From positions 37,758 through 101,757 of the forward strand of contig WRAX01000001.1 of the NCBI GenBank assembly GCA_009779935.1: a stretch of 64,000 nucleotides of DNA. Direction: 5' to 3'. Of this stretch, positions 25,934 to 63,303 are shown piece after piece. The notes below the pieces were generated by a model. The model saw only the letters and a program-made list of their open reading frames with translations. It was not told where the DNA came from and did not search any database. The DNA comes from Defluviitaleaceae bacterium (lineage in GTDB: Bacteria; Bacillota; Clostridia; Lachnospirales; WRAX01). The stretch's first letter is position 1. The number at the start of each line of letters is the position of its first letter. The translations under genes and the position numbers were made by a program.

Positions 25934-26068
25934 ATGGCAAAAGCAGGTATGAGAAGACCAAGCCCAAAAGAGCCACATGGCACAGAATCCAATAAAAAGC
26001 AAAATTTTCCCAAAAATGATGTGCCGCCCGTGCCGGAAATACAGGGCAAGGCAAAAACAGGTAAATAA
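25934..26068 (+). CDS. 44-aa basic hypothetical protein (MAKAGMRRPSPKEPHGTESNKKQNFPKNDVPPVPEIQGKAKTGK)
   Basis: GGAGG lies 7 nt upstream of the ATG, and a perfect terminator follows immediately. It falls below the ORF-track cutoff. Confidence 0.45.
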   Translation: MAKAGMRRPSPKEPHGTESNKKQNFPKNDVPPVPEIQGKAKTGK

Positions 26069-26071
26069 ACC

Positions 26072-26109
26072 AAAAACACCATTGCCGCAAAGCCAGCAAT
26101 GGTGTTTTT
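26072..26109. terminator. Bidirectional rho-independent terminator
   Basis: aaaaacaccattgc / gcaatggtgttttt 14-bp stem between the small + ORF and the end of sigG. Confidence 0.85.
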
Positions 26110-26111
26110 GA

Positions 26112-26605
26112 TTAGGATATATACTTTCGCATATTCTTTAACGCATTTTTCTCCAAACGGCTTACTTGTGCTTGGCTTATGCCTATTTCATCCGCCACCT
26201 CCATTTGGGTTTTGCCTTCAAAAAAGCGTAGGTTGATAATATGCCTTTCCCGCTCGCCCAGCCTTTTCATGGCTTCTGAAAGGGAGATGTTTTCCAGCCA
26301 CATGGCATCGGTATTTTTGTCATCACTTAGCTGGTCCATAACAAAAAGTGCATCTGTGCCGTCGTTATAAACGGGTTCGAAAAGTGATACGGGCTCCTGT
26401 ATGGCATCAAGGGCAAAAACCACTTCTTGCCGGGAAACGCCCAACTCCACAGCAATTTCTTCGATGGTGGGTTCTTTGCTGTTTTGGTTTATCAGCCGCT
26501 CCTTAGCTTGCAGGGCTTTGTAGGCAATGTCCCTTAAACTTCGGCTTACCCTGATGGAATTATTGTCCCTTAAATATCGCCTAATTTCACCTATTATCAT
26601 TGGTA
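26112..26605 (-). CDS. sigG: sigG 3' segment (regions 2.4-4 of sporulation sigma factor G), separated from its 5' segment
   Basis: PMIIGEIRRYLRDNNSIRVSRSLRDIAYKAL...GISQAQVSRLEK is near-identical to my recollection of B. subtilis SigG from residue ~100. The MAFI- start in the ORF track is element-derived. Confidence 0.85.
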
Positions 26606-26629
26606 TGAATGCCATTAGACGAAAAACTA

Positions 26630-28000
26630 TTATAGCCCTTCAAACTTATAAAACACTTCAACATTCTCATCATCAATCACAATTTTTTCCACACACGAGC
26701 GCACGATGTTGCGTTGCTCATGCTTTGTCATATACTCCCAAGTTTCTTCAAGGGTTTCCAATGTTTTTTTCACACTTTCAATTTTATCGGCAATCACATT
26801 GCGTTCCTGCTCCCTTGTAATTTGGGCTCCCATATTGGCAAGTTGCTTTTGCTGCTCTTTTATGGTGTTTATCAAAATTTCGTCACCATTGTCTGCATAA
26901 AGGTTGTACAGACGTTTAATTTTTTTGGCAACCTCATCATATCTACCCTGCAACACTTCCAGCACCGATTGGGTTGCAGCCCGCACATTGTCCACCTGCT
27001 TTTGTTTTATGGAAAAAGAGAATAAATCACTAATTATAACGCTTTCCACATCACTGGCCCACAGCCTTTTGTTGTTGCAATGGGGGTCTTTTACCAAATG
27101 GGGCTTGCTTGTATCTTGGGAATAGCATACGATTTTACAATCATGCTTGCCCCATTTTTGATAGCGCATTTTAGCCCCGCATTTACCACAAAGCATTAGC
27201 CCGGTAAACAGATAGTTGCTGTGGGTTGCACGGTTAATGGACCGCTCCGCCATATAATCCATGGCTTTTTGATAAACATCTAAGCTGATAAGCGGTTCGT
27301 GCTTGCCCAAAAACTCTTCATCATTATAAATTATGTAACCGGCGTTGGATTTGCGCTCCAAAATCTGTATGGCAAGCTTTTCGTATTTAAGCCCCAGGGT
27401 TTGGGCAATCTTGCCGGTGGAATAACCTTCCAAATACAGGTCATAAATTTTGCGCACTGTTTCCGCATCTTTATTTGGCACAAGTATGCCCTGCCCCTTA
27501 TCATAATCATAACCAAAGGGTATGCGGCCGCCGCCGGGCCAAAGCCCTGCTTTTACACGCTCTCTCATACCCATACGGGTGCGCTCTCTTATATTTTCCC
27601 GCTCCAATTGGGCAAATGCGGATAAAATGCCCAGCATAAGCCGCCCAAGGGGGGTAGATGTGTCCATACTTTCCTGCGTGGAAATGAAGTCCACGCCATG
27701 GGGGTTAAACACATCTTCAATCAAATACAATGTGTCCTTTTGGCTGCGGGAAAGCCTGTCCAATTTATAAACCAGCACCGTGCTGATGGTTTTATTTTTC
27801 ACATCAGCAATCATCCTTTGCAATTCCGGCCTATCCATATTGCTGCCGCTGTATCCGCCGTCAATATAATAATCAAAATCTTTAATACCCTTGGAAGCGC
27901 AGTGTCCTGCAAGCATCTGCTTTTGCGCTTCTATGGAGTAACCTTCCTCCCGCTGGGCATCTGTGGAAACCCTGATATAAATCGCTGCTTTGTGCTGCAT
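26630..28000 (-). CDS. Large serine recombinase (SpoIVCA/CcrB-like)
   Basis: 456 aa with AAIYIRVSTDAQ (catalytic Ser), a resolvase domain, a recombinase domain, a Cys-rich zinc ribbon (CGKCGAKM...C) and a coiled-coil. Confidence 0.92.
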   Translation of the reverse strand: MQHKAAIYIRVSTDAQREEGYSIEAQKQMLAGHCASKGIKDFDYYIDGGYSGSNMDRPELQRMIADVKNKTISTVLVYKLDRLSRSQKDTLYLIEDVFNPHGVDFISTQESMDTSTPLGRLMLGILSAFAQLERENIRERTRMGMRERVKAGLWPGGGRIPFGYDYDKGQGILVPNKDAETVRKIYDLYLEGYSTGKIAQTLGLKYEKLAIQILERKSNAGYIIYNDEEFLGKHEPLISLDVYQKAMDYMAERSINRATHSNYLFTGLMLCGKCGAKMRYQKWGKHDCKIVCYSQDTSKPHLVKDPHCNNKRLWASDVESVIISDLFSFSIKQKQVDNVRAATQSVLEVLQGRYDEVAKKIKRLYNLYADNGDEILINTIKEQQKQLANMGAQITREQERNVIADKIESVKKTLETLEETWEYMTKHEQRNIVRSCVEKIVIDDENVEVFYKFEGL

Positions 28001-28011
28001 AAAGCACCCCC

Positions 28012-28203
28012 TTAGCCATTAGCTTCATCATAACACAAAGTGGTGATGTTTTCAACGGCATTTTTTACCAATGTATCTTGGGGAGAAAGTCGCACATTAA
28101 CTGCTTGAATGGCTTCCAAAACCACATTGCTGTCCAGTATATATTTTTCCAAATCAGCCTTATTCACCTTTTTTCCATTAATGTATCTGGTTACACTTAG
28201 CAT
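28012..28203 (-). CDS. 63-aa hypothetical protein upstream of the recombinase
   Basis: The start at 28203 follows AAGGAG. Its stop lies 11 nt before the recombinase ATG. The longer ORF-track version lacks an RBS. Confidence 0.45.
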   Translation of the reverse strand: MLSVTRYINGKKVNKADLEKYILDSNVVLEAIQAVNVRLSPQDTLVKNAVENITTLCYDEANG

Positions 28204-28300
28204 GGCAACGCTCCTTTTTTGCATTGTTGCCATCAAATGCGGTGCGTAATCCCGGGTTACAAAAAACACCGTGTACATGCGCCACGGTGCCAAGGATATA

Positions 28301-28371
28301 CAGGGGTAGAGAGAATCGAACTCCCACTAAAGGTTTTGGAGACCTCTGTCATGCCACTTGACCATACCCCT
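28301..28371 (-). tRNA. tRNA-Trp (anticodon CCA)
   Basis: The reverse complement AGGGGTATGGTCAAGTGGCATGACAGAGGTCTCCAAAACCTTTAGTGGGAGTTCGATTCTCTCTACCCCTG folds as a cloverleaf. It has a 7-bp acceptor stem, the anticodon loop CUCCAAA and the T-loop TTCGATT. No CCA end is encoded. Confidence 0.9.
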
Positions 28372-28414
28372 AAATAAGATGCAGGGCGCACAATGTGCGC
28401 CGCTACAACCAATA

Positions 28415-28488
28415 TGCTGGTACCGAGATTCGAACTCGGGAGCCTCTCCCTTACCAAGGGAGCGCTCTACCTACTGAGCTATACCAGC
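28415..28488 (-). tRNA. tRNA-Thr (anticodon GGT)
   Basis: The reverse complement GCTGGTATAGCTCAGTAGGTAGAGCGCTCCCTTGGTAAGGGAGAGGCTCCCGAGTTCGAATCTCGGTACCAGCA folds as a canonical cloverleaf with the anticodon loop TTGGTAA. Confidence 0.92.
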
Positions 28489-28554
28489 AAATATTTCAAC
28501 AAAAGATATTCTACCACGCCAAAGGGCATTTGTCAACAAAAATTTTTGGGAAAT

Positions 28555-29112
28555 TTATATTTGGGGACAGGAAGGGTTTGACAGCTTTTTTATCAGGTCA
28601 TCATGGGTGGTTAAGTTGATTTGGGTGCCTTTGGCTGCGGTTAGGTTGCAGTGTTTTAACCAATCACGCCATTTTTGTATACCAAACATGGTGGATATGG
28701 TTTGCCACGATGGTGTGCCTTGTGTCCTTACGGCATTGTGTTGCCGTGCTGATGGGGGGCGGTTTTTTATGTAGTCGTCTATAAATTGCGCTTGCCAGTG
28801 CTCCTTGGTTTGATGGGAGTAAGGGCGGGAAGGGGATGGTTGGTTTTGGGGGTAGTGTTTTTCCAAAAAGTCTTTTAAGTTTATTCCAAAGCGCAGTTTT
28901 ATGACGGTGTGGGGCGGCAAGGTTTTTTTCTTAAATTCTGCTGTGCGCGGCGGGCGGCCATTGTCTATGATAAACTGATTTATGGTATCGAAGATGGTTT
29001 GCTCGCTCCAGCCCATAAAGGGCATGTGGTCAAGGATTTCTTGTATTTTTTCTTTTGTGCCTTGGTCTGTCACCACATCCAATGCTGCCTGTAAGGCTTG
29101 TTTTCGTGTCAT
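28555..29112 (-). CDS. Hypothetical protein with two homing-endonuclease-associated-repeat-like (HEARO-like) modules
   Basis: 185 aa. It has two repeats of the pattern W..Q.I...I..F....GR.P...EF......P....I...FG....W/FL. AGGAGG lies 7 nt upstream, directly after the premature stop of the sigG 5' fragment. Confidence 0.5.
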   Translation of the reverse strand: MTRKQALQAALDVVTDQGTKEKIQEILDHMPFMGWSEQTIFDTINQFIIDNGRPPRTAEFKKKTLPPHTVIKLRFGINLKDFLEKHYPQNQPSPSRPYSHQTKEHWQAQFIDDYIKNRPPSARQHNAVRTQGTPSWQTISTMFGIQKWRDWLKHCNLTAAKGTQINLTTHDDLIKKLSNPSCPQI

Positions 29113-29149
29113 TTAGCATCCTCCTATTATCAATTTCGCTTAATGACAT

Positions 29150-29450
29150 TCATTGGTACAGCATATGTGGAAAATTTTACGCCATGGCTGGTGTCAAAAT
29201 TGTCTATAGCTTTAATAAGGCCAATGCAGCCCACTTGGAATATATCATCAATATTTTCGCCACGGTTGTTGAAGCGTTGGATAACGCTAAGTACAAGGCG
29301 CAGGTTGCCGTATATATATTCCCTGCGGGCATGTTTACAGCCCTGCAAAATCTTTGCAAAAAGTATATCTTTTTCCGCTTGTTTTAGAATAGGAAGTTTG
29401 GCAGTGTTTACGCCGCAAATTTCCACCTTGGTGCGCTGTGTGCCGCTCAT
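29150..29450 (-). CDS. sigG: sigG 5' segment (regions 1.2-2.3). As it stands, the ORF runs 6 codons into the element and stops at 29130.
   Basis: MSGTQRTKVEICGVNTAKLPILK...GNLRLVLSVIQRFNNRGENIDDIFQVGCIGLIKAIDNFDTSHGVKFSTYAVPM matches the SigG N-terminal ~100 aa. Confidence 0.85.
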
Positions 29451-29484
29451 ATATGGTCGCCCGCTCTCTGCAATAATATAAAGA

Positions 29485-29513
29485 TATTTTTTCCAAGGCA
29501 GGCAAGTTTATAC
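29485..29513 (-). promoter_or_regulatory. Sigma-F-like forespore promoter upstream of sigG (GTATA-N14-GGAAAAAATA)
   Basis: On the minus strand, GTATA lies at 29513-29509 and GGAAAAAATA at 29494-29485. This fits the GYATA / GGnnAnAnTR pattern as I recall it. Confidence 0.45.
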
Positions 29514-29579
29514 CAGCAAAATATTCCAATCTATTCCAAAGCCAAGCAAAAAGGGACGGTTAATGCCCGCCCCTGTATA

Positions 29580-30203
29580 TTATGGTGTTATGGTTAAAAT
29601 GCCGCCGCAATGGGAAATTTGCCGGTATGCCCAGCTAAATTGCCCAAGTTTGGGGGTTAGGGTTTCGGTTACCAAGTAAAACTCGTCATCATCCCATTCG
29701 TCGCCACTTTCTGTGCGGCAGGTGTTTTGGGCTTCTTCTGTTTCAAAGGCAATATCGCCGATGATAATTTGCCCGCCCGGGGCAAGCAGTTTTGCCGCAT
29801 CTTGTATTAGATTGATTTTTGCAGCATCATCCAAGTGATGCATGGCGTAGGTGGATATTATAAAGTCAAATTGCAGCCCTTCCAATATTTTTGGCAGGCC
29901 TTTTGTAAAGTCATGTTTAATTAAGGTGGTTTGGGGTATTTTGGATGCGGTTATTGCCAGCATTTCCTCAGAAAAATCTATACCCGTTACTTTGTTGCCG
30001 CCATCTTCTAATTTGGATGCCAAAACCCCTGTGCCAATGCCAATATCAAGCACATTGCAAGGGCTTTTTAACATGATGGTGGTGTAGATTTGTGCCAAAA
30101 TATCTTTATAGCCTGCAAATGGATATTTACCATCATCATCTGTAAGATTTACATCGGCATCATATCCATTTGCCCATAGGTCAAACCCTTTTTCTCCTAA
30201 CAT
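29580..30203 (-). CDS. Class I SAM-dependent methyltransferase
   Basis: VLDIGIGTGVLA motif I. 207 aa. Confidence 0.8.
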   Translation of the reverse strand: MLGEKGFDLWANGYDADVNLTDDDGKYPFAGYKDILAQIYTTIMLKSPCNVLDIGIGTGVLASKLEDGGNKVTGIDFSEEMLAITASKIPQTTLIKHDFTKGLPKILEGLQFDFIISTYAMHHLDDAAKINLIQDAAKLLAPGGQIIIGDIAFETEEAQNTCRTESGDEWDDDEFYLVTETLTPKLGQFSWAYRQISHCGGILTITP

Positions 30204-30251: not shown

Positions 30252-30476
30252 TCACCCATCAGTATTTTTGGGTTCTAAGGCTCTAAAACCGATGTCATTA
30301 ATCTCGTTTTGGATTTCTTTTAGGGATACAACGGCCGGGTCAAATTCCACGGTTACTTTGTTGTTTCTGGTGTTGGCGGTGGCTTCTACCACGCCAAGGT
30401 CTTTTAGTGCGTTCACGACGCTTTGTTCGCAACGGCCTCAAGACATACCTATAACATCAAATGTAATTTTTTGCAT
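30252..30476 (-). CDS. CopZ-like heavy-metal-associated (HMA) domain protein with an in-frame TGA at the first Cys of the metal-binding motif (GMS-U/stop-GRC)
   Basis: MQKITFDVIGMS[TGA]GRCEQSVVNALKDLGVVEATANTRNNKVTVEFDPAVVSLKEIQNEINDIGFRALEPKNTDG. The TGA is at 30440-30438. The same frame stays open to TGA at 30254-30252. The RBS is GAAAGGA. Confidence 0.6.
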
Positions 30477-30547: not shown

Positions 30548-30576
30548 TTGACAAATGCGGGTTTGTATGGTATATT
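30548..30576 (+). promoter_or_regulatory. Consensus sigma-A promoter (TTGACA-17-TGgTATATT), divergent from the CopZ-like gene
   Basis: -35 at 30548-30553 and -10 at 30571-30576. No plausible protein gene lies downstream on the + strand. Confidence 0.55.
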
Positions 30577-30588
30577 TGGGGTGTATAT

Positions 30589-30659
30589 AGCAGATGCAGC
30601 GAAAATGGCGCATGTGCAAGGTTTTGCCTTGTAAGCAGGTTCAAATCCCGCCAACTGCT
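30589..30659 (+). ncRNA. tRNA-like RNA or degenerate tRNA remnant
   Basis: The acceptor-like pairing AGCAGATG/CAACTGCT matches at 7 of 8 positions. There is a D-like arm (GCG-AAAATGG-CGC), a CAAGG-TTTTG-CCTTG arm, and a T-arm-like GCAGGTTCAAATCCCGC. It is not a canonical cloverleaf. Confidence 0.3.
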
Positions 30660-62578: not shown

Positions 62579-62713
62579 ATGAAAATGACTTTTCAACCAA
62601 AAAAGCGTCAGCGGTCCAAGGTACACGGCTTTCGCAAGCGGATGAGGACTAAAAACGGCCGCAATGTTATCGCCAGAAGGCGCAAGCGGGGCAGAAAGGT
62701 GCTAACCGCATAA
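62579..62713 (+). CDS. rpmH: 50S ribosomal protein L34
   Basis: [55 protein letters not shown]. The ORF-track N-terminal extension is spurious. Confidence 0.97.
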
Positions 62714-62714
62714 T

Positions 62715-63062
62715 TTGATGAAGTTTACCGTATCTTTGCAAAAAAACCACCAGTTTCAACATATATACAAAAAGGGCAAATCCTGCGGGAACAGGCACCT
62801 TGTTGTTTTTGTGGAAAAAAATGAACTGGAACAAAACCGGCTTGGCATATCTGTCAGCAAAAAGATGGGTGGTGCGGTGGTGCGCAACCTTTTGCGTCGG
62901 CGCATTAAAGAGGCGTATAGGGACATGGAAAAACGGCTTACATATGGGTATGACATAGCCATTTTGCCAAGACAAGGTACATCCTGCGCCACCTATCAAG
63001 AAATTGTATCCGCCCTGCGGCATTTGATGAAAAAACAGGGGTTATGGGGTGGAAGTGAATAA
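62715..63062 (+). CDS. rnpA: Ribonuclease P protein component
   Basis: 115 aa, basic, with the RLGISVSKK...[13 protein letters not shown] motif. Confidence 0.93.
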
Positions 63063-63303
63063 GTTAATAACAAAATTTTTTTTGATACTGATAAGGGGCT
63101 ACCAGCGTTTTGTTTCGCCCCATTTTGCGCCAAGGTGTAGGTTTTACCCAACCTGCTCCGCTTATGCTTATGAAGCCGTTAAAACCCATGGGTTTTTAGC
63201 CGGCAGTTTTTTAGCAACATATCGGCTTTTGCGATGCCACCCTTGGAGCAAGGGCGGCGTGGATTTTGTGCCTGAAAAGGGCTTTCACAAACATTTGTGG
63301 TAG
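63049..63303 (+). CDS. yidD: Membrane protein insertion efficiency factor YidD
   Basis: [30 protein letters not shown] signature. Confidence 0.93.

Follow-up and report, generated by a model that had tools for sequence, protein, structure and literature searches.

The subject of this article is a stretch of 64,000 nucleotides (the window) from a Defluviitaleaceae bacterium, part of a 176.8-kb contig of a metagenome-assembled genome (MAG), in which the sporulation sigma factor gene sigG is split by an intervening element that carries two adjacent tRNA genes, tRNA-Thr(GGU) and tRNA-Trp(CCA). As judged from sequence, the pair is probably an ordinary, functional tRNA operon of host type that now constitutes the sole cargo of a minimal sigG-intervening element of 2,553 bp. 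The original prediction had described two canonical-looking tRNA genes lying inside an excisable sigG element, between its accessory gene and its recombinase operon, and both the tRNA calls and this placement are borne out.

The tRNA genes and their transcription signals

ARAGORN detects exactly two tRNAs across the 64 kb of the window. Both are encoded on the minus strand, and they form a cassette with the following parts, given in the direction of transcription.

28508-28536, minus strand: putative sigma-A-type promoter of the tRNA cassette, TTGACA-17-TAGAAT with a TG extension, 11/12 consensus match
28414-28489, minus strand: tRNA-Thr(GGU), ARAGORN; Rfam RF00005, 70.7 bits; no encoded CCA
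28377-28410, minus strand: GC-rich hairpin between the tRNAs, -19.9 kcal/mol, z = -4.2
28300-28372, minus strand: tRNA-Trp(CCA), ARAGORN; Rfam RF00005, 62.8 bits; no encoded CCA
28261-28289, minus strand: terminator-like hairpin after tRNA-Trp, CACCGUG-9 nt-CACGGUG followed by U6, recognized from sequence and fold

Both genes lie far above the RF00005 gathering score of 29, with full-length matches to the model and E-values, computed for the whole window, of 3e-11 for tRNA-Trp and 2e-13 for tRNA-Thr, so that both calls stand up to the covariance-model scoring on which they had been made to depend. Minimum free energy alone returns the complete cloverleaf from the tRNA-Trp sequence and the acceptor and T arms from that of tRNA-Thr. 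Read off the Rfam alignment, tRNA-Trp possesses A1-U72, G73, and the anticodon CCA, while tRNA-Thr possesses G1-C72, C2-G71, A73, and the anticodon GGU. In E. coli and B. subtilis, tryptophanyl-tRNA synthetase (TrpRS) relies on the set CCA, G73, and A1-U72, and threonyl-tRNA synthetase (ThrRS) on the set GGU, G1-C72, and C2-G71, and the acceptor and anticodon identity elements expected for the bacterial enzymes are present in both tRNAs. The two genes are accordingly predicted to encode canonical, intact tRNAs of the bacterial elongator type.

The promoter and terminator of the cassette are called as consensus matches. The promoter is the best sigma-70-type match across positions 26000-29700 and ends 18 nt upstream of tRNA-Thr. 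The GC hairpin ggcgcac-aat-gtgcgcc at 28385-28401, previously noticed between the tRNAs, is present and forms the core of the longer spacer hairpin, as well as which none of 200 shuffled sequences folds. The terminator-like hairpin has a GC-rich stem of 7 bp and a loop of 9 nt, and about 60 nt separate it from ORF63, the small open reading frame (ORF) ahead of the recombinase gene. With a sigma-A promoter, a spacer hairpin, and a terminator-like hairpin of its own, the tRNA pair appears to be an independent transcription unit. A second promoter-like site (28055-28027, 10/12 with a TG extension) is situated just before the recombinase gene.

The sigG-intervening element

The element, the two parts of sigG, and the remaining genes are arranged as follows.

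26606-29158, minus strand: sigG-intervening element, 2,553 bp, one copy of the core repeat included
29150-29158: core direct repeat TCATTGGTA, 9 bp, at the junction with the 5' part of sigG (sigG-N)
26597-26605: core direct repeat TCATTGGTA, 9 bp, at the junction with the 3' part (sigG-C)
29134-29153: terminal inverted repeat arm (putative attP half-site), pairing with 26605-26624; 20 nt, 85% complementary
26605-26624: terminal inverted repeat arm (putative attP half-site), pairing with 29134-29153
29485-29513, minus strand: putative forespore-type sigG promoter, GTATA-N14-GGAAAAAATA
29130-29450, minus strand: sigG 5' part, SigG residues 1-99 with a short out-of-gene tail; NCBIfam NF006071 positions 2-99, 163.9 bits
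28555-29112, minus strand: ORF185, accessory gene at the sigG-N end; conserved, 74 homologs
28012-28203, minus strand: ORF63, small ORF before the recombinase, 63 aa; NCBI locus tag FWE21_00345
26630-28000, minus strand: large serine recombinase, 456 aa; Pfam Resolvase, Recombinase, and Zn_ribbon_recom
26112-26615, minus strand: sigG 3' part, NCBIfam SigG positions 95-257, 295.9 bits

On the minus strand, the order is thus sigG-N, ORF185, promoter, tRNA-Thr, hairpin, tRNA-Trp, terminator, ORF63, large serine recombinase, and sigG-C, with all the genes of the element co-oriented with sigG. For both halves of sigG, the SigG equivalog model outscores the SigF, SigE, and SigK models, and in-silico deletion of the 2,553 bp between the repeats yields an uninterrupted SigG of 261 aa, which is 93% identical to the intact SigG P0195 of a related MAG. 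The junctions are predicted to read ...CCTATTATCATTGGTACAGCATATG... in attB and ...GACATTCATTGGTATGAATGCC... in attP, the joined attP being TTTCGCTTAATGACATTCAT-TGGT-ATGAATGCCATTAGACGAAA. No SigG identical to the reconstituted protein was found among 5.8 billion clusters, in which the best intact protein is the one at 93%, and an empty site is thus not in evidence. In NCBI's annotation, the MAG has no protein record for either half of sigG; ORF185 is assigned the tag FWE21_00360, with exactly two protein-less tags, FWE21_00350 and FWE21_00355, between it and that of ORF63.

The features that define sporulation gene-intervening elements are found here, namely, a split gene whose reading frame is restored by exact removal, a large serine recombinase, a short core repeat, and imperfect inverted-repeat ends. 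The departure concerns the target, which by the equivalog model is sigG rather than a gene of the mother cell; in B. subtilis and C. difficile, sigG is established as forespore-specific. A comparison of the sigG halves with the intact gene of a relative gives a pN (nonsynonymous) of 0.048 and a pS (synonymous) of 0.73, indicating that both halves are probably under purifying selection. The promoter GTATA-N14-GGAAAAAATA, which by its consensus is putatively of the sigma-F/G type, is common to the split sigG of the window, L084, and L099 and to the intact sigG of L095. Since both halves appear to be selected and the promoter is the same as that of the intact gene, the split sigG would still be used and must be reassembled.

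Among the genes of the element, the recombinase matches the PHROG integrase family PHROG 95 (2.5e-120) and has thousands of homologs; the protein is on record from the MAG of the Defluviitaleaceae bacterium and from termite-gut metagenome assemblies. In L084, L086, and L090, the recombinase gene is immediately preceded by a homolog of ORF63, with 48-57% identity. A 93-aa ORF with a TTG start, considered as the ORF before the recombinase, is a miscall whose 5' end overlaps the terminator-like hairpin, and the 63-aa ORF was retained instead.

ORF185 homologs lie directly after sigG-N in L099-L102, and several are called as in-frame sigG-N::ORF185 fusions. Proteins P0132, P0133, P0135, P0146, and others (289-315 aa), called on several metagenome contigs, have an ORF185-family gene fused in frame to the N-terminal region-2 domain of SigG, and in the window (28555-29132) the ORF185 and SigG-N frames are separated by an 18-nt gap that contains a ribosome-binding site. 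The AlphaFold2 (AF2) model of ORF185 is all-alpha, with a predicted local distance difference test (pLDDT) score of 87. Searches of NCBIfam, PHROG, PDB sequences, and PDB folds returned no match to it, and the Pfam PF18780 HNH_repeat match is weak and below the cut-off. By its position, ORF185 is a candidate directionality factor.

Related elements and the cargo slot

About 100 related loci with homologous recombinases or ORF185 homologs were fetched, the majority of them adjacent to fragments of sigG; several are the same element from different assemblies. They include 80 loci (L004-L083) from species-representative genomes, with recombinase identities of 54-84%, the best match among these genomes being 84%, together with 7 loci having the closest recombinases (76-84%). 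The hosts of the recombinase family are Clostridia MAGs of Oscillospiraceae, Lachnospiraceae, Defluviitaleaceae, and others. In at least 55 of the 80 species-representative loci, the recombinase gene has a fragment of sigG next to it, in two arrangements: sigG-C comes after the recombinase in the same orientation (about 15 loci), or the recombinase is convergent with sigG-N (about 40 loci). Elements of this kind that interrupt sigG and carry such recombinases are therefore widespread in Clostridia.

The original prediction had recommended examining whether homologous sigG elements also carry tRNAs. None has a tRNA inside the element among the loci L004-L090 and L099-L102, and the few tRNAs found in them are all situated outside, beyond the recombinase or the sigG fragment. 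These tRNA-free relatives rule out the tRNAs as a conserved feature of the element family, and with no tRNA inside the element in any of the roughly 100 related loci, retention based on a tRNA cannot be the general answer of the family to the problem of excision in the germline.

Between the ORF185 module and the module of small ORF and recombinase, related elements hold other cargo. In L101 and L102 this is a PemK toxin gene and an nSTAND NTPase gene, in L086 it comprises many genes including PemK, and in L084 it is an Opp transporter. Because none of these elements holds a tRNA in the same slot, the tRNA cassette is best regarded as the lineage-specific content of a variable cargo slot, apparently outside the conserved machinery of the family. 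The PemK/MazF-type toxin genes (L101:11800-12171 and L086:1246-1596) occupy the same slot as the tRNAs of the window, and one of the related sigG elements also carries genes for an nSTAND NTPase and a Schlafen/AlbA_2 protein, cargo of an addiction or defence character.

The 8.4-kb sigG element of L084, the closest relative, has an interior consisting of a small ORF and an Opp ABC transporter operon, and in several assemblies the contigs break right before the recombinase gene. Its segment L084:3001-9681 is about 80% identical to L095:10971-17646, the DNA located just downstream of an intact sigG, so either the element engulfed host DNA or the locus was rearranged. Capture of the tRNA cargo from DNA downstream of sigG would fit this comparison; it was set aside, as no tRNA is present by the intact sigG of L095-L098.

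Origin of the tRNA genes

The comparison with relatives covers tRNA-Trp. A metagenome search requiring an exact 55-nt core, by which diverged paralogs are missed, retrieved four termite-gut metagenome contigs from four samples (L091-L094), and the tRNA-Trp of the window is identical to their tRNA-Trp genes at 73 of 73 positions. The search is subject to false negatives: it returned nothing from sample 3300010369, in which the organism is present. In each of the four contigs the gene stands alone, has a hairpin and T-run of its own behind it, and lies in a different neighbourhood, and three of the four share the conserved promoter cTTGACAAA...TGGTAGAAT. They represent the ordinary tRNA-Trp genes on the chromosomes of related bacteria, and the comparison with chromosomal genes that had been suggested earlier thus gives full identity for tRNA-Trp. 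In the window cassette, the native tRNA-Trp promoter is gone and tRNA-Thr and the spacer hairpin stand in its place. Because the tRNA-Trp of the relatives found is monocistronic with a promoter of its own, the Thr-Trp cassette is a rearranged, derived unit.

An alternative source, raised in the original prediction, is a prophage ancestor of the element, of which the tRNAs would be relics. Phages often carry tRNAs, and the recombinase matches the phage integrase family PHROG 95. Searches with the exact cores of tRNA-Thr and tRNA-Trp gave 0 matches in the 2.9 million viral contigs of IMG/VR, and in the 50,697 records of the GenBank phage collection the similarity is generic, at no more than 87% identity. 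The integrase is the only phage-like gene in the element, since neither ORF185 nor ORF63 has a PHROG match, and the identity of tRNA-Trp to chromosomal genes of related bacteria likewise speaks for a bacterial source. Phage ancestry is hence the least credible of the explanations weighed in this article, and that earlier suggestion can be given up.

Copy number and alternative explanations

Whether the tRNAs of the element are the only copies in the genome bears directly on what they do for it. The tRNA search on the source contig covers 81.4 kb, including the window, and no further tRNA above threshold was found there. The contig L092 is syntenic with the dnaK-grpE-hrcA region of the window (86% and 76% DNA identity) and has an identical tRNA-Trp placed divergently upstream of hrcA, between hrcA and the next gene. 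The corresponding interval in the window is 115 nt long and comprises the hrcA operator and the murA terminator but no tRNA; in L109, which belongs to the species of the window, the gene order at hrcA is the same and a tRNA is likewise absent. The synteny with L092 ends exactly at the tRNA site, beyond which murA follows in the window and a membrane protein gene in L092. Orthologs of the neighbours of the other stand-alone tRNA-Trp genes are absent from the 81 kb, apart from one weak match of 33%. The absence of tRNA-Trp at hrcA is compatible with relocation and does not prove it.

Relocation would underlie an addiction scenario, in which the element holds the only tRNA-Trp(CCA) gene of the genome, and perhaps also the only tRNA-Thr(GGU) gene, tRNA-Trp having moved from, for example, the hrcA-proximal site. 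The excised 2.5-kb circle, which does not replicate, would then be indispensable and obliged to re-integrate upon germination; loss of the circle after excision in the forespore would abolish translation of UGG and kill the cell, and re-integration would thereby be enforced. The contrast with L092 at hrcA points in this direction, as do the 81.4 kb without another tRNA, the single tRNA-Trp context in each of the four matched samples (consistent with one copy per genome), the intact and strongly promoted copy in the element, and the PemK toxins of related elements, which make selection for retention devices plausible. Against it, the tRNA-Trp genes of relatives lie in four neighbourhoods, so that absence by hrcA does not imply absence elsewhere, the synteny stops exactly at the hrcA-proximal point, and related elements carry no tRNA. 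Contigs of other assemblies also break at the tRNA, as a repeated sequence would cause them to do, an effect that identical tRNAs in co-resident species explain equally well. Addiction by relocation is accordingly a tentative proposal that we regard as possible and somewhat doubtful.

It competes with the simpler explanation of a redundant passenger, for which the chances appear close to even, in that the tRNAs would be extra copies of host genes, with chromosomal tRNA-Trp and tRNA-Thr(GGU) genes elsewhere and an effect that is neutral or a small benefit of dosage. The element family seems to pick up host DNA, as the similarity of about 80% between the L084 interior and the L095 DNA by an intact sigG illustrates, the cargo is different in every element examined, and complete identity of tRNA-Trp to the genes of relatives would also be expected after recent capture. 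The cassette is nevertheless no simple copy, its native promoter having been lost and the gene fused behind tRNA-Thr; it is therefore not obviously recent, yet it has not decayed, and no second copy is seen in 81 kb.

The cassette might alternatively serve the element as an expression device, in which a strong constitutive promoter and a leaky terminator feed low-level transcription of ORF63 and the recombinase gene while the terminator blocks read-through from sigG. The promoter of the cassette does point toward ORF63 and the recombinase, with the terminator only about 60 nt from ORF63; the small ORF of L090 is also directly preceded by a terminator-like hairpin, and co-transcription of tRNAs with mRNA is known from the E. 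coli thrU-tyrU-glyT-thrT-tufB operon. In other elements, however, tRNAs are lacking and the upstream sequences are unrelated, such as the TTGACA-type promoter in L086, and the window has the separate promoter-like site just before its recombinase. An expression device is thus an unlikely account of the cassette.

The assembly itself was considered as a further source of error, in that a contig chimera formed via the shared tRNA-Trp could have placed in the element tRNAs that do not truly belong to it. Several co-resident organisms do have this 73-nt tRNA-Trp, and two further assemblies of the material yield contigs that terminate within the cassette or close to it. The flanks, however, fit together as the two halves of a single sigG, and their repeats and inverted-repeat ends correspond; the k-mer used for assembly, given as k141 in the name of the contig, exceeds the 73 nt of the tRNA; and the order of ORF185, cargo, small ORF, and recombinase is the architecture of the family. 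In addition, a 154,822-bp contig from the Joint Genome Institute (JGI) has an ORF63 homolog of at least 90% identity whose frame reaches to about 20 nt from tRNA-Trp. A chimera is thus very unlikely, if not quite so improbable as phage ancestry.

Several points weigh against the preferred reading, that of a functional host-type operon as the sole cargo of the element. Linkage across the tRNAs comes from one k=141 assembly, which is probably also the one behind the NCBI MAG record, and two other assemblies break at or close to the cassette, the contig L003 beginning within tRNA-Trp and L002 at 186 nt downstream of it. The loop of the terminator-like hairpin at 28261-28289 is long, and the hairpin was missed by the terminator scan because its 9-nt loop exceeds the 8-nt limit of the scan. 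The roles of ORF185 and ORF63 are assigned from their positions.

Proposed mechanism

In the mechanism proposed here, the sigma-A promoter would drive transcription of tRNA-Thr(GGU), the spacer hairpin, and tRNA-Trp(CCA), ending at an intrinsic terminator, and host enzymes would process the tRNA precursors and add the CCA end. With a promoter and terminator of its own, the pair would be expressed during growth from the integrated element and from the free circle alike, independently of sigG. The cassette would occupy the variable cargo slot between two modules of element machinery. At the sigG-C end lies the putative recombinase module, the large serine recombinase preceded by the conserved small ORF, and at the sigG-N end the ORF185-family gene, which may be co-transcribed with the 5' part of sigG from the forespore-type promoter and may direct excision. 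The cassette would also insulate the recombinase operon against read-through from sigG, and the recombinase would be expressed by read-through of the tRNA terminator or from the promoter-like site at 28055-28027. Excision would take place in the forespore, after which the circle would have to re-integrate, and the tRNAs would select against its loss only if the chromosome contained no other copy.

Genomic surroundings

Upstream of sigG, a CopZ/HMA-like ORF (30252-30476, minus strand) contains an in-frame TGA at the first Cys of its GMxCxxC metal-binding motif (MQKITFDVIGMS*GRCEQ...), which is either a selenocysteine codon or the mark of a pseudogene. About 1.1 kb from sigG, positions 30549-30659 (plus strand) comprise a near-consensus promoter, TTGACA-17-TATATT with a TG extension, followed by a 70-nt tRNA-like sequence. 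As a tRNA, this sequence (30590-30659) was rejected: its T-arm is good and a UUU 'anticodon' is present, but it scores 22.9 bits against the threshold of 29 and lacks a convincing fold. It could be the remnant of a tRNA in decay or a small RNA of an unknown kind.

Different genes precede sigG in each of the window (29451-30203), L084, L095, L099, and L101, comprising a methyltransferase, GRDB, ftsZ with an ORF, QueT/acetyltransferase, and an ABC ATPase, whereas in a Defluviitalea-like genome (L098:8224-10774) sigG follows ftsZ-spoIIGA-sigE in the usual order. The surroundings of sigG are thus unusually variable among these relatives from termite guts. At its right end, the window has rpmH-rnpA-yidD-yidC (62579-63303), and gyrB lies near 16-17.6 kb; given this cluster and gyrB, the sigG element is possibly close to the origin of replication. 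No dnaA was seen.

Comparison with known systems

Intervening elements of sporulation genes include skin in sigK (B. subtilis and C. difficile), SPbeta in spsM, vfbin in spoVFB, gin in gerE, and yin in yabG (PMC5595907, PMC4191935, PMC5025042, PMC10747680). The element of the window resembles the skin, SPbeta, and gin kind in splitting a sporulation gene, in having a large serine recombinase and a short direct-repeat core, in the restoration of the frame by exact removal, and in a small accessory gene that is a plausible directionality factor. It differs in its target. All the described intervening elements reside in genes of the terminal mother cell (PMC5595907, PMC7192596), so their loss never reaches the offspring, whereas sigG encodes the sigma factor of the forespore, that is, of the germline. 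It is also far smaller, at 2.55 kb compared with 28.6 kb for gin and 48 kb for the B. subtilis skin (PMC5595907; 10.1101/2022.02.25.481979), and its sole cargo is a housekeeping tRNA operon, while the paper on gin makes no mention of any tRNA (PMC5595907). Full-text literature searches revealed no description of a sigG-intervening element.

Closer in logic are the systems of reversible, regulated gene integrity or active lysogeny, represented by the Listeria comK prophage and by Streptococcus SpyCI in mutL (PMC7192596, PMC4129442), in which excision restores a gene in a surviving cell line and the circle must re-integrate, as would be required of the sigG element. The elements at comK and mutL are phages or phage-like islands that measure many kb, and no essential tRNA cargo is described for them; for the sigG element, reversibility is a prediction. 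Developmental excision by a large serine recombinase is also shared with the cyanobacterial fdxN element (XisF). The recombinase of the window matches the XisF model over its full length, but with 135.9 bits against a cut-off of 375 it is not an ortholog, and heterocyst elements act in terminal cells and are not known to carry tRNA cargo.

Essential tRNA genes are found on secondary replicons, and the idea that an indispensable function or a toxin enforces the retention of dispensable-looking DNA would link the present case with such tRNAs on chromids and megaplasmids and with toxin-antitoxin modules; unlike chromids and megaplasmids, the carrier here is a 2.5-kb integrative element without a replication function. 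A gene neighbourhood consisting of tRNA-Thr(GGU), tuf, tRNA-Trp(CCA), and secE/nusG is conserved in bacteria, and in the E. coli thrT-tufB operon, too, tRNA genes are co-transcribed with what lies downstream. The cassette of the window has the same two tRNAs in the same order, with Thr(GGU) upstream of Trp(CCA), but lacks tuf, secE, and nusG.

Significance

An element inserted in the forespore gene sigG must leave and return, or be lost. Should its sole cargo prove to be an essential single-copy tRNA, it would be a simple natural case of inheritance secured by a housekeeping gene rather than by a toxin, and the sole-copy tRNA would allow the persistence of such elements to be tested directly. 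Under the relocation scenario, an essential gene would act as a natural lock, by which the germline problem of a developmental intervening element is solved. If the tRNAs are redundant, their presence would still mean that elements of this family capture host genes, and that recombinase, small ORF, and ORF185, in a unit of 2.5 kb, may be enough to define such an element.

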